Assembly (NCBI RefSeq): GCF_003334335.1
Contig: NZ_QOWQ01000061.1
Direction: 5' to 3' (one strand)
From: Escherichia coli
GTDB taxonomy: Bacteria > Pseudomonadota > Gammaproteobacteria > Enterobacterales > Enterobacteriaceae
DNA: 13,768 bases
A program made the translations under genes and the position numbers. Shown piece by piece: positions 5,128 to 13,768 of the stretch. The notes under the pieces were generated by a model that searched no databases, had not been told where the DNA came from, and saw only the letters and a list, made by a program, of their open reading frames with translations. Position 1 is the first letter of the stretch; every line of letters begins with the position of its first letter.

Positions 5128-5890
5128 GGTGATGCCTTCTGACGATAGATTAATGTTGTATTCTATTGGTATCTGGAGACCATATGGCAACAGTTACAGT
5201 ATATTCTCCCCGCTGTAATTCCTATAAAGTGTACCGTTATGATCACAGCACCTCAGATCATGAGCGTTTCCAGTGCTAATCCTGCAAACGTGTATTTCAA
5301 CTGAATTACATCTACGAAACCCGAAAACCAGGCATTAAAGAGCAAATTGTTGAAATGGTTCATAACGGAGCCGGGGTTCGCGATAGCTCCAGAACGCTGA
5401 AGGTGGATATCAACACCGTCATTCTCACTTTAAAAAACGCTCACCACGTAAAGTAACCATATCTCCAGCCGCCAGTGTCGATGTGGCACTTATCTGTGAA
5501 CTTGATGAACAATGGAGTTTTGTCGAAAACAAAGCTCGTCAGCAGTGGCACTGGTACGCGTATAAGACCAAAGCTGACGGTGTGCTGGCTTACACTTTTG
5601 GTCCTCGCACTGATGAAACATGCCGTGAGTTGCCGGAATTCCTGAAGCCATTCTCCGCAGGCATGATAACCAGAGACAACCGGAGCAGTTATACCAGAGA
5701 AATGCCACAGGATAAGCATCTTGTCGGCAAGATATTTACCCGGCGCATTGAGCGCAACAATCTGACACTTCGTACTCACATCAAACGACCTGCCCGGAAA
5801 ACGATTTGCTTTTTACGCTCCCTGGAAATTCACGAAAAGCCATTGGTTCATTTATCGAAAACACATGTACTACTGACAGGAGTCATTACC
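5128..5890 (+). mobile_element. IS1-family insertion sequence, about 763 bp, probably inactive
   Basis: Left end GGTGATGCC... at 5128 and right end ...GGAGTCATTACC at 5879-5890 match IS1 terminal inverted repeats. Internal insA/insB-like ORFs with the conserved A6C frameshift motif (5432-5438). Element length matches IS1 (768 bp). No clean 9-bp target-site duplication seen. Confidence 0.8.
5184..5456 (+). pseudogene. insA: IS1-family insA with an in-frame premature stop
   Basis: Translation MATVTVYSPRCNSYKVYRYDHSTSDHERFQC*SCKRVFQLNYIYETRKPGIKEQIVEMVHNGAGVRDSSRTLKVDINTVILTLKNAHHVK aligns to IS1 InsA, but an in-frame TAA at 5277-5279 falls inside the zinc-finger region. Confidence 0.75.
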
Positions 5891-6957: not shown

Positions 6958-7310
6958 GTCTGAATAGCAGCTATTTTCGCTATTGTAGCGGGATTTGCTG
7001 CTATTTTACTAACCCATTAATGAAAAGAGAGGCTTTTATGTGCTTACTTGCACCAGAAAATCCTTATCCGATATATGCACTACCACCGCTGGTGAGAAAT
7101 GCAATAATTGAAACTCAAAAAAATACACAGGCACCTTTGGCTATGGTGGCAACATCCGCATTAACAGCGATCTCAATTGCCTGTCAGAATCAGATTGACG
7201 TATGCAGACCTGGAAATTTACATGGGCCTGTTAATCTTTACTCTCTGATTCTGGCTGATTCCGGTGAAAGGAAAACGACCGTGGATAAAGTGTTTATGAA
7301 AGCATTTTAT
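6958..7310 (+). repeat. Direct repeat copy 2: the intact promoter-proximal and 5' region of the yfjI-like gene
   Basis: Partner of copy 1 at 6478-6830; this copy is continuous with the long ORF starting at 7020/7038. Confidence 0.7.
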
Positions 7311-8177
7311 CTCAGGGATGAAGCCCTGGCGGAAGAATACGCGAAACTGGTTGAGAATTACAGTACAGAAAAGGAAATATGGGAGCAAAAACAAAAAGCG
7401 CTGGAATCAAAATTTCATAAAGAGATTCGTGCCGGTAAAGATTACAAGGCAACAGAATCAGAGCTTGAAACGCATCTGAATAAACCTCCTGTTCCGCCGC
7501 AGATACGTCGAACAATTTTTAATGAGACAACGATAGAGGGAATGTTAAAATATTACTCCGATAGCAATCGCTCTTTTGCTCTTGTATCCAGTGAAGGGGG
7601 GGTAATTTTTGACAGCCGGGCCATGAGTAAACTGGGAATTATTAACACTTTGTGGGATGGAGGTTCTCTTTTCATCGACAGGAAATCATCTCCCGGAATT
7701 AATTTGAAGGAGCCAAGACTGACGATATCGGTGATGATTCAGCCTGATGTTTACCACAAAGGTTTTTGTACGCGAAAAAAAGAAATTGTGAAAACGTCAG
7801 GACATCATGCAAGGTTTTTGATGTGTCAACCAACATCAACGCAGGGGACAAGGATAATAACCGGAGATAATTATTCATCACAGTATCAGGATTTGTTTGA
7901 AGAGAGGATCAATGAGCTTATTGATGAAAGTCTGGCGATGAGTGGTGAACGACGTTGCCTTCACTTTTCTCCTCAGGCTGCCAGAATCTGGACGGATTAT
8001 TACAATGATGTGGAATCGAAGCTGGGGGGATTGGGGCCTTTAAGACATTGCCGGGAATATGCTGCTAAAAATGCAGAGTATATGGCAAGACTGGCAGGAC
8101 TTATTTACCATTCGAGCGGGGGAGATTTCCCCTTACACTGCAGAAATGGCGAGAGAATTAGCAATATGGTACGGTAA
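7020..8177 (+). CDS. yfjI-like (DUF3987-type, putative replication-associated) protein, N-terminal 385 aa; frame interrupted near the 3' end
   Basis: Long ORF in the position occupied by yfjI after alpA in CP4-57-type islands. SD-like AAGAGAGG precedes the internal ATG at 7038, the more likely start. The reading frame continues in another frame (8059-8463) after a G5 tract. DUF3987 assignment is from genomic context and memory, not a search. Confidence 0.7.
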   Translation: MKREAFMCLLAPENPYPIYALPPLVRNAIIETQKNTQAPLAMVATSALTAISIACQNQIDVCRPGNLHGPVNLYSLILADSGERKTTVDKVFMKAFYLRDEALAEEYAKLVENYSTEKEIWEQKQKALESKFHKEIRAGKDYKATESELETHLNKPPVPPQIRRTIFNETTIEGMLKYYSDSNRSFALVSSEGGVIFDSRAMSKLGIINTLWDGGSLFIDRKSSPGINLKEPRLTISVMIQPDVYHKGFCTRKKEIVKTSGHHARFLMCQPTSTQGTRIITGDNYSSQYQDLFEERINELIDESLAMSGERRCLHFSPQAARIWTDYYNDVESKLGGLGPLRHCREYAAKNAEYMARLAGLIYHSSGGDFPLHCRNGERISNMVR

Positions 8178-8463
8178 TGAGTATGTGCGGTTGTCTAATC
8201 CGTTAACTTTTGACAACTCTGCCCTGACCGTACCTGTGCGACTCATTCCAGAGGAGCTTGAACTTTTCAACTGGATAAAAAGCTATTGTATTGAGAAGGG
8301 GATCCTCTGTATGAAAAAAAATGACATTTTACAGCGTGGTCCGAACCGTTTCCGGAAAAAGGATAAAATCAACTGGTTACTGGATTTACTGTATGAACAA
8401 AACAGAGTTGTACCGGTTATTGAGGGAAAAACGTTGTGTGTCGCACCTAACTTTGACCTCTGA
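8059..8463 (+). CDS. C-terminal segment of the yfjI-like protein in a shifted frame
   Basis: Overlaps the previous ORF by 119 nt in a different frame; no independent RBS. Combined length (about 480 aa) is what I expect for a yfjI-family protein. Confidence 0.55.
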   Translation: MLLKMQSIWQDWQDLFTIRAGEISPYTAEMARELAIWYGNEYVRLSNPLTFDNSALTVPVRLIPEELELFNWIKSYCIEKGILCMKKNDILQRGPNRFRKKDKINWLLDLLYEQNRVVPVIEGKTLCVAPNFDL

Positions 8464-8486
8464 ACGACTTAATCGTTGAGTTCATA

Positions 8487-8517
8487 TAGTCTCCTCTGCT
8501 ACTTGCGGAGGAGACTA
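8487..8517 (+). terminator. Perfect 10-bp stem-loop immediately downstream of the yfjI-like gene; possible terminator or protein-binding hairpin
   Basis: TAGTCTCCTC (8487-8496) pairs with GAGGAGACTA (8508-8517), 11-nt loop. Downstream sequence is only moderately T-rich, so it is not a canonical intrinsic terminator. Confidence 0.35.
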
Positions 8518-8518
8518 A

Positions 8519-9283
8519 TGTCTTTACCATGTCAGCGTTGTATTAGAAAACTCTGGTACAGGTCAGTCAGTAAATATAACTGGTGTAACCACTATTTACT
8601 ATTGGATAGAGTGTTGCTCAGGATATTGTCGGCTTTAGTCTGAGGTGAGGTGGGGCCTTCATTGTTTTCGTGTTCAATAAATAATTTAGGTTAATTAGTA
8701 TTATTAGTGGAAGTTATGTGATCTGTTATGTTGTCTTGTACGCACTTAACACTGGTTACGTACCGGAACACTATTAGAGTATGTTATGGCTCTGTTACAG
8801 TTTATAGGTATGAAAAAATATAATCTTTCCTGTATGAAATAATATTCTTATGGTGTGTGGGGTATGGTCTGTATACCATCATTTTTATGGTGAAGTTAAA
8901 TATCTGTAGAGGCCTTAAGCTGGGTCGCTGTTTTTACTTAATGGTACAGAAGTATTAATAGCGGTGTTGCCTGTGGCTACCCGATACTGGCTTTTGTGAA
9001 TGTCAGATTACTTCCTGTAAGTGATTGAATGGTACTTCCTTAAACTCAATTCTATGAGGTGTGTTTTTACCATTGTAATTCGTACTGGTCCTCAGTTTAA
9101 GTGAGTCTTACTGTACTCTGAAATATTACCTCTTTGGAGTAATGAGGTAATACGAAACAGTTTTATCAGGTTGTCTGTGCTGCTGGTTACCTCGTTTATT
9201 AATGCCGCGGTACGGCGTTTCTGTACTCTCAGTATTTATGTAATTCCACCTTCCTGTAACTTTTATAAAGTAAGGACTATAAA
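8519..9283. other. ORF-free AT-rich region with short repeated motifs and hairpins; candidate replication origin / regulatory region
   Basis: No ORF of 60 aa or more in any frame across about 820 bp. Repeated TTCCTGTA (8826, 9012, 9250), CTGTACTCT (9111, 9221), TGTTATG (8715, 8725, 8782). Inverted repeat TATTACCTC/GAGGTAATA (9124-9151). Sits directly upstream of the HUH Rep-like gene. Confidence 0.3.
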
Positions 9284-9847
9284 ATGTATAATGCTAATCC
9301 CAATTACGAAATGGACTTCATGATTCTGAAAGACGTGAATGAACACATGGAAGGTCTGTTTCAACGTTTTTCTAAACTGTTACCTTTCAGAATTGATTTT
9401 GCCTACAGGAAAGACACGCCCAGTTTTGGTCATTCCTGTAGGCACAGTATGTGTATTGAAATGCACCGCTTACTTAGTGAAACCCAAACGATGCTGGCGG
9501 GATATTACTGGGTAATGGAATATACGTCAAACAAGGGACTTCATATTCATTTTATCGGCTACTTGGATGGGCAACGTCACAAGAAATTTTATCGGATATC
9601 CAGGCAACTGGGAGATATCTGGAGTCGGATCACGGAAGGGGAGGGTTATTTTCACCTGTGCAGTACTAAAGACAAATACCCGGTGCGTATCGATCACGTG
9701 ATTCACTATAGTGATAAGTCTGCGGTAGACGGTTTACGTTACGCCCTTAGCTACCTGGCTAAACAGGAGCAGAAAGAACACGGTATTATTCTGATGCGTA
9801 GCAGACTTCCCGAAAAAAGTAACCGCGGCCGACCACGACACAACTGA
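9284..9847 (+). CDS. YagK/YfjJ (inovirus Gp2)-family protein with HUH-type motifs; putative rolling-circle Rep-like initiator
   Basis: 187-aa ORF with an HUH-like motif LHIHFIGY and a downstream tyrosine motif YALSYLAK (YxxK-like). Occupies the position of yfjJ in CP4-57-like islands. Shorter than I would expect for this family. Confidence 0.65.
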   Translation: MYNANPNYEMDFMILKDVNEHMEGLFQRFSKLLPFRIDFAYRKDTPSFGHSCRHSMCIEMHRLLSETQTMLAGYYWVMEYTSNKGLHIHFIGYLDGQRHKKFYRISRQLGDIWSRITEGEGYFHLCSTKDKYPVRIDHVIHYSDKSAVDGLRYALSYLAKQEQKEHGIILMRSRLPEKSNRGRPRHN

Positions 9848-10355
9848 ATTACAGCTGTATTAGAATTAAGTTTCCGTAAGTTGTTGGGAGGTGCTTGAGT
9901 TAATAGGCAGTAGAGGGGGCGCTGTAATCAGTGTAGGGGACCCGAATTTCTGCTGTGGTGCTTCAGTGGTTCGGATACAGGTAACGAATATGGTTCATAA
10001 ATCTGACAGTGATGAATTAGCAGCACTGAGGGAAGACATCACTTGAAGCTTATGGGATTGAATGGCGACGTAAACCGCAGAGTCCTGTGCAGTGCGTTTC
10101 CGTATTATCCACGGATGAGAAAGTTGCGTTATTTCGTCGGTTTTTTCGTGGGCGTGGTGATGTATGGGGCCTTCGATGGGAAAGCAAAACCAGCGGCAAA
10201 TCAGGGTACTTGCGGGCCTGTGCTAACGAATGGCAGCCGGGAATAGCGGTAAACTCCGGATAAAATGTGGGGACTGCGCTCACCGTCAGTTGATCCCTGT
10301 ATCTGATCTCATCATCTACCACTACACGGTTTAACGGGGCCGCGTCATCTCGGCG

Positions 10356-10385
10356 TTGCCCGATAAATTCTTTTCTACGTATAAT
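10356..10385 (+). promoter_or_regulatory. Candidate sigma70-like promoter for the 1083-aa gene
   Basis: -35-like TTGCCC (10356-10361), 18-bp spacer, perfect -10 TATAAT (10380-10385), about 110 bp upstream of the start codon. Sequence match only. Confidence 0.3.
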
Positions 10386-10497
10386 AACCAGAATGAACGT
10401 GTAAAACACCATAGTATTCAGAACTATAAACATCGAAACTTGCCATATTGACCAGAATAAATGACCTTATTTTTACTGAAATTTAAGGAGAACACCG

Positions 10498-13768
<3,271 letters not shown>

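Follow-up and report, generated by a model that had tools for sequence, protein, structure and literature searches.

A truncated primase-helicase pseudogene joined to the upstream region of a Mokosh type I module in a genomic island of Escherichia coli

The island and the 650-bp stretch

The window (the whole stretch of 13,768 nt that was analysed) covers a genomic island of Escherichia coli up to the 5' part of its cargo. The order of the backbone genes was taken from the RefSeq annotation of the collinear loci in strains NCTC86, AH65, and TW14359 and compared with CP4-57 of E. coli K-12. It ran integrase, AlpA-type HTH, YfjI (DUF3987), and YfjJ/Gp2-type gene, followed by variable cargo, which makes the island CP4-57-like. 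The cryptic prophage CP4-57 (intA-yfjH-alpA-yfjI-yfjJ-abpB/abpA) has the same backbone order, and its variable defence cargo, the anti-phage AbpAB pair in K-12, directly follows the yfjJ-type gene. The CP4-57 proteins are, however, only distantly related to those of the window island, and yfjK/abpB lies on the opposite strand. The YfjJ/Gp2-type backbone gene of the window, called 'Rep-like' in the original prediction, was a 187-aa ORF on the plus strand (9284-9847); a 99.8%-identical copy is annotated in RefSeq as 'inovirus-type Gp2 protein'. Only weak Pfam matches were obtained for its product (REP_ORF2-G2P, E = 0.0012; YagK_YfjJ_C, E = 0.28), and similarity to K-12 YfjJ was confined to the motif level (E = 3e-4 over 18 residues).

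The YfjI-family (DUF3987) gene was broken up into two ORFs that overlap each other (7020-8177 and 8059-8463), and its 99.7%-identical copy in NCTC86 is flagged by PGAP as 'frameshifted'. The same gene is intact in TW14359 and AH65. The island backbone is decaying at more than one place. A degenerate IS1 transposase remnant, frameshifted and with an internal stop, was located at ~5184-5876 (coordinates projected from the NCTC86 annotation) between the genes for a 605-aa hypothetical protein and the AlpA-type HTH protein; it is kept in NCTC86, TW14359, AH65, UTME-7, and FEX669. In NCTC86, an IS3-family element of ~1.3 kb (8398-9729 of its locus) sits between the YfjI-like and Gp2-like genes. It is absent from the window, and the 6 bp shared by the BLAST segments on either side of it (8576-8581) may represent a target-site duplication.

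Upstream of the integrase gene (1781-2983), positions 1608-1623 read TGGCGGTGAGGGGGA, which, in reverse complement, seems to resemble the 3' end of a tRNA-Ser; this is probably a partial copy of an att site. No complete tRNA was detected by ARAGORN in the window or the collinear loci. The island is flanked by ycdU (serX region) in the window and by clpA (serW region) in NCTC86.

The 650-bp stretch under study (9848-10497) lies between the 187-aa ORF and an ORF of 1083 aa on the plus strand (10498-13749). Its bounds are exact: position 9847 is the last base of the upstream stop codon, and position 10498 is the first base of the TTG that opens the downstream ORF. According to the original prediction, this stretch contained no convincing gene, only weak ORFs of 67 aa on the plus strand and 127 aa on the minus strand. 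Both ORFs exist, and the ORF list held no intact gene, only short overlapping ORFs. Those on the plus strand were 51 aa (9891-10046), 58 aa (10087-10263), and 67 aa with a TTG start (10043-10246) in length; the 127-aa ORF (10050-10433, minus strand) runs antisense and spans the recombination junction described below.

The stretch had also been predicted to be richer in GC than its neighbours. This held for its core, with a GC content of 0.48-0.52 over 9901-10350 versus 0.36-0.38 at 9001-9450 and 0.37 at 10351-10650. GC content was already 0.47 in the upstream coding DNA at 9601-9900, and thus the rise begins within the neighbouring gene. Judged by comparison with related loci, the stretch is a composite of an intergenic spacer, a helicase-gene remnant, a 6-bp filler, and the upstream region of a Mokosh module.

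The remnant of an AEP-helicase gene

The first 143 positions of the stretch (9848-9990, plus strand) belong to the island backbone and form the spacer that separates the Gp2-like gene from the start codon of an AEP-helicase gene. This spacer aligned with the one located 5' of an intact gene in O157:H7 strain TW14359 and in strain 1070/13, from which it differed by a copy-number change of the 7-bp unit GTATTAG and a 5-bp indel. The promoter scan detected no promoter-like site in 9848-9990, and the RNA fold z-score of the spacer (-1.33) was not significant.

In TW14359 and 1070/13, the intact gene follows the same Gp2-type gene after a spacer of 154 bp and measures 2361 bp. It encodes a protein of 786 aa, represented by WP_000233452.1 (ECSP_RS06365, TW14359) and WP_000233439.1 (1070/13). 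The protein comprises a Pfam AEP-TOTE domain (PF22548, residues 49-277, E = 2e-98), a ResIII/DEAD domain (423-565), and a Helicase_C domain (639-738), and its N-terminal 352 residues are matched by the PADLOC PrimPol model. The idea that this gene is the orthologue of K-12 yfjK was rejected: yfjK lies on the opposite strand, K-12 AbpB/YfjK is not an AEP-helicase, and only its Walker A region showed similarity (E = 0.017).

DNA alignment to the intact O157 gene identified positions 9991-10322 (plus strand) as a 5' remnant of this AEP(TOTE-type)/PrimPol-SF2 helicase gene. The remnant has the same position after the Gp2-like gene, the same spacer, and the same start codon (ATG at 9991) as the intact genes, and the first 351 nt are ~91% identical. 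Homology ends at 10322, so that ~117 of 786 codons are kept. Within them, 17 bp are deleted after 10036 and 1 bp after 10245 relative to the intact gene; since the two deletions add up to 18 bp, the reading frame returns after the second. This is seen in the forward-frame translations of the stretch, in which one protein-like sequence hops between frames: MVHKSDSDELAALREDIT and a stop, then LSTDEKVALFRRFFRGRGDVWGLRWESKTSGKSGYLRACANEWQPGI in the next frame, then KLRIKCGDCAHRQLIPVSDLIIYHY in the first frame again. The frame of the 67-aa ORF, which is the pseudogene frame between the two frameshifts, carries LSTDEKVALFRRFFRGRGDVWGLRWESKTSGKSGY and aligns to the intact AEP-helicase protein. The stitched, frame-corrected translation was 80% identical to residues 1-118 of the 786-aa protein (E = 1e-62) and matched PF22548 at model positions 1-68 of 230 (E = 1.1e-17). 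Against NCBIfam, the stitched fragment gave only a weak match to PrimPol_Msp (E = 0.0024).

The intact proteins have the complete AEP-TOTE and SF2 helicase domains, whereas the window holds codons 1-117 with two frameshifts. A complete primase and SF2 helicase in one uninterrupted ORF were not found in 9991-10322. Owing to the two frameshifts and the truncation at codon ~117 of 786, we classify the remnant as a pseudogene of the AEP-helicase family, not as a member able to function. The statement that the stretch has no convincing gene is thus right only in the sense that no intact gene is present; a pseudogene is recognisable, and the 67-aa ORF is not a random frame but the middle reading frame of that pseudogene. 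Among the explanations originally offered, a decayed gene was one, and the alignment, the 80% protein identity, and the PF22548 match bear it out for 9991-10322.

The pseudogene is already known, as RefSeq/PGAP annotates it in public E. coli genomes. B0915_RS05215 of NCTC86 (NZ_CP019778.1, 1019814-1020149) lies in a locus that is 99.8% identical to the window over all 650 bp and is described by PGAP as 'TOTE conflict system archaeo-eukaryotic primase domain-containing protein; frameshifted; incomplete; missing C-terminus'. Its neighbours are those of the window, with the Gp2-type gene upstream and a 1652-aa 'AAA domain-containing protein' (mkoA) downstream. The two loci differ in their insertion elements: of the two, only NCTC86 has the IS3-family element 5' of the Gp2-like gene, and mkoA, uninterrupted there, contains an IS100 in the window. 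TOTE conflict systems are named, in the definition of Aravind et al. 2022 as cited in PMC12458937, after TPR, OB, TBP, and Effector. An annotation check found no TPR-CSD/OB or TATA-binding-protein genes beside the intact gene in TW14359 and 1070/13 or in the window. 'TOTE' in the product name is a domain-family name only.

The dN/dS ratio between the remnant and the intact alleles was 0.27-0.30, compared with 0.29 between intact alleles and 0.19-0.25 for the Gp2-like gene; these values rest on small counts (~29-31 differences). Most of the divergence of the remnant probably predates its decay. The remnant is most likely without function; at most, transcription of the upstream backbone genes may continue through it.

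Homology to the helicase gene ends at 10322 and cargo homology starts at 10329

The remnant is followed by the filler TACACG (10323-10328), which has no counterpart in the intact AEP-helicase gene or in the cargo as carried by a plasmid. From 10329 onwards, the window is homologous to an unrelated plasmid, p353_DSM_115072 of Chimaeribacter arupi, and the left end of the homologous DNA reads GTTTAACGG. Identity over 10329-11322 was 89.2% by BLAST and continued uninterrupted across the region upstream of mkoA. Positions 10329-10497 (plus strand), which align with the plasmid DNA upstream of mkoA, thus form the upstream region of a Mokosh type I module, with a predicted promoter, 5' UTR, and ribosome-binding site. 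The whole unit, compared between NCTC86 (11482-18039 of its locus) and the plasmid (8001-14565 of its locus), spans 6.57 kb at 90.9% identity. On the plasmid, it starts 32 bp after avs1c, part of the Avs1 defence system. The same pair of genes is present on a Klebsiella IncHI1B plasmid, where homology sets in only at ~10446. The plasmid locus of C. arupi (774-14571) forms a small plasmid-borne defence island, in which Mokosh type I directly follows Avs1 (avs1a, protease, avs1c).

In Mokosh type I, a gene encoding kinase and COG1112/Upf1-like helicase domains precedes one for a PLD nuclease (Millman et al. 2022, bioRxiv 10.1101/2022.05.11.491447). The cargo agrees with this published architecture, and in NCTC86, whose copy is 99.9% identical, it fits the PADLOC models end to end (MkoA: 2204 bits, model positions 5-1603 of 1607; MkoB: 503 bits, positions 4-452 of 454). 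The window differs from this system in that its mkoA is cut by an IS100 at 13693 and that mkoB lies beyond the window. Positions 10498-13692 (plus strand) hold the 5' two-thirds of mkoA, a NERD-kinase-helicase gene of 1652 aa when intact, as in the 99.9%-identical full-length gene of NCTC86. The window diverges from NCTC86 at 13693, and only residues ~1-1060 of MkoA are present. The remaining 76 bp (13693-13768) are an end of the IS21-family element IS100kyp, 100% identical to IS100kyp copies beside istB in thousands of E. coli records. The 1083-aa 'NERD-kinase' ORF is therefore incomplete, its stop at 13749 lying in IS sequence. With mkoA cut by IS100kyp at 13692/13693, the Mokosh system is probably inactive in this strain.

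Because the same module with the same left end occurs on the Chimaeribacter plasmid, 10322/10329 can be taken as the left recombination junction of a cargo swap. A junction where cargo had been swapped in was another of the explanations originally offered; it is likewise borne out, by AEP homology stopping at 10322, cargo homology setting in at 10329, and the occurrence of the module on the plasmid. A repeat search at the junction revealed neither direct nor inverted repeats around the cargo; the two-copy matches obtained were short and of the kind expected by chance, and microhomology amounted to 0-2 bp at most. On the right, the E. coli module terminates within the final codons of mkoB, past which no sequence from the 3' part of the AEP-helicase gene was found. 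The lack of repeats or useful microhomology, together with that of a 3' helicase piece beyond the module, points to replacement by illegitimate recombination instead of site-specific insertion.

The promoter scan yielded a single sigma-70-like site inside 9848-10497, TTGCCC-18-TATAAT at 10356-10385, with 10 of 12 matches to consensus (predicted -35 at 10356-10361 and -10 at 10380-10385, plus strand). The original prediction placed a candidate promoter of the 1083-aa gene in this stretch. A plausible consensus site does occur there, in the cargo-derived part, but the number of sigma-70-like sites in the region, two, was at the level of shuffled sequences (1.6 +/- 1.1), i.e., without excess. The counterparts of the two hexamers on the Chimaeribacter plasmid are TTGTCC and CATAAT. 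On the Klebsiella plasmid, the site is absent from the sequence context of the module; as homology begins downstream of it (~10446), the candidate promoter is not an invariant part of the Mokosh module. Inspection by eye of the 52 bp common to all module copies (10446-10497) gave no acceptable -10/-35 pair.

A Shine-Dalgarno motif, AAGGAG, was predicted at 10485-10490 (plus strand), with a spacing of 7 nt to the TTG at 10498 and of 19 nt to the start annotated by PGAP, the ATG at 10510. Homology to a Vibrio plasmid (75% identity) begins at ~10497, which mildly favours TTG as the start of mkoA. Taken together, mkoA would be transcribed from the candidate TTGCCC-18-TATAAT site with a leader of ~105-118 nt and translated from the AAGGAG site. 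The fold z-score of the predicted 5' UTR was +0.47.

A small RNA had also been considered for this stretch and found no support. Searching the whole window with Rfam 15 gave no match at gathering score, and relaxing the filters (E <= 1) gave a lone match to an archaeal snoRNA at chance level (16 bits versus a gathering score of 42, E = 0.65). The fold z-scores of the spacer and the predicted leader do not argue for a structured RNA either. Neither a known RNA nor a conserved small protein mapped here.

Distribution among E. coli genomes and history of the locus

We compared the 650 bp with 5426 complete E. coli genomes using megablast. The query was found in 1829 of them, and among the matches listed, all but one carried a PGAP feature named 'TOTE conflict system archaeo-eukaryotic primase domain-containing protein', 'helicase', or 'DEAD/DEAH box helicase'. 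Whereas the 5' end of the gene occurs in 1829 genomes, only 686 retain 80% or more of its 3' 2 kb, leaving ~1100 genomes with a 5' stub only. The whole 650 bp, i.e., the identical junction, was present in 281 of the 5426 genomes at no less than 96% identity. The 5' end of this Mokosh module was carried by 349 genomes, and in nearly all of the matches sampled the AEP pseudogene adjoined it, which suggests that the module was acquired once here and then spread with the island.

Breakpoints were compared in a multiple alignment of nine sequences. The stub ends at ~10201 in FEX669, beside ISL3/transposase debris; at ~10219 in AZ191, inside an aerobactin/pap island; at ~10320 in UTME-7, 12 bp before an IS2-like end, where PGAP calls the adjacent feature 'transposase'; and at 10322 in the window, NCTC86, AH65, and YJ3, beside Mokosh. 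The terminus near the UTME-7 stub is presumably that of IS2. Every stub that covers the site has the 17-bp deletion, despite four different 3' ends. As the deletion is common to all of these, the simplest history of the nine sequences would have the frameshift first and repeated erosion or replacement from the 3' side afterwards. In YJ3, an IS21 has replaced the 5' part of the stub, including the site of the 17-bp deletion, and the sequence from 10046 onward is split from the spacer. The UTME-7 stub has an additional internal deletion of 63 bp. At 9400-9520 of the UTME-7 locus, the stub ends within 2 bp of the window breakpoint and continues into the 12 bp and the IS2-like terminus, with no Mokosh. 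The closeness of the two ends could reflect chance, an ancestral break common to both, or local fragility of the site.

In the reading that we prefer, with a probability of roughly 0.93, the 650 bp are a scar and not a functional gene: the stub of a truncated primase-helicase gene joined to the upstream region of Mokosh. The ancestral backbone would have consisted of integrase, AlpA-like, YfjI-like, and Gp2/YfjJ-like genes followed by the 786-aa AEP(PrimPol)-SF2 helicase gene, an order that is intact in O157:H7 and other strains. The helicase gene would first have been frameshifted in codon ~16 by the loss of 17 bp. The whole part beyond codon ~117 would later have been replaced by the 6.57-kb Mokosh type I module (mkoA-mkoB) via illegitimate recombination, the module bringing ~170-180 bp of its own upstream DNA. 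Points against this reading include the dN/dS of the remnant, which showed no visible relaxation of constraint.

The absence of an excess of non-synonymous change in the remnant would also suit a spacer and 5' stub that were kept for a function in cis, such as providing the adjacent Gp2/Rep-like protein with an origin or nick site, acting as a regulatory leader, or driving downstream cargo from a read-through promoter region. So would the finding that ~1100 genomes have kept the spacer and no more than the 5' 200-330 bp of the gene, its start always included, with 3' breakpoints at four or more different places. Such one-sided retention is, however, expected if cargo turns over downstream while the upstream backbone gene must stay intact. 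Moreover, no promoter-like site was present in the spacer, RNA structure there was not significant, and no notable repeats or hairpins were seen. Stub lengths vary, the stub of UTME-7 has lost 63 bp internally, and the IS21 inside the stub of YJ3 separates the part from 10046 onward from the spacer. We regard it as improbable that the spacer, together with ~200 bp from the 5' end of the dead gene, serves in ~1100 genomes as a cis-acting element of the island, be it a nick site/origin or a transcriptional entry for cargo; if it did, the position would be a built-in 'cargo socket'.

It is less probable still that a small protein is made here, whether an 18-aa peptide from the ATG at 9991, the product of the 67-aa ORF, or that of the 127-aa antisense ORF. 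These ORFs exist, and the ATG at 9991 retains the native start context of the former gene, but the 67-aa ORF begins at a TTG within the old gene, of which it is a shifted frame. The 127-aa ORF had no match in NCBIfam or Pfam, even at E <= 10. Since its N-terminal part is encoded by cargo DNA and the remainder by the strand opposite the pseudogene, it would have come into existence only when the junction formed and would be no older than the swap; we rejected it as a gene and consider it a chance ORF across the junction. None of these ORFs, the 127-aa one included, is annotated in the RefSeq copies examined, and they are cut short or deleted in other stubs. A sequencing or assembly origin of the frameshifts, with a gene that is really intact or only truncated, has a negligible chance of being correct. 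The 1-bp deletion after 10245, being a single-base indel, is of a type often introduced by assembly, but the independent complete genomes of NCTC86 and AH65 share the 17-bp deletion, the 1-bp deletion, and the junction, and YJ3 shares the 1-bp deletion and the junction. The full 650 bp recur at no less than 96% identity in 281 genomes, and the 3' 2 kb of the gene is missing regardless. On the population data, the assembly-error reading is already refuted.

The locus is a case of ordinary genomic-island decay beside a known defence system, and it matters little beyond annotation. For gene calling, annotation of the 67-aa and 127-aa ORFs should be avoided, and mkoA may begin at the TTG at 10498 instead of at the ATG at 10510 now annotated. 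The island lineage can be traced with the common 17-bp deletion and the junction at 10322/10329 as handy markers. The exchange of a defence module in an E. coli island can here be traced base by base: Mokosh type I, which is also found on Yersiniaceae and Klebsiella plasmids, appears to have overwritten a primase-helicase gene directly after the YfjJ-type gene, and it occupies the slot in which CP4-57 of K-12 carries AbpAB.
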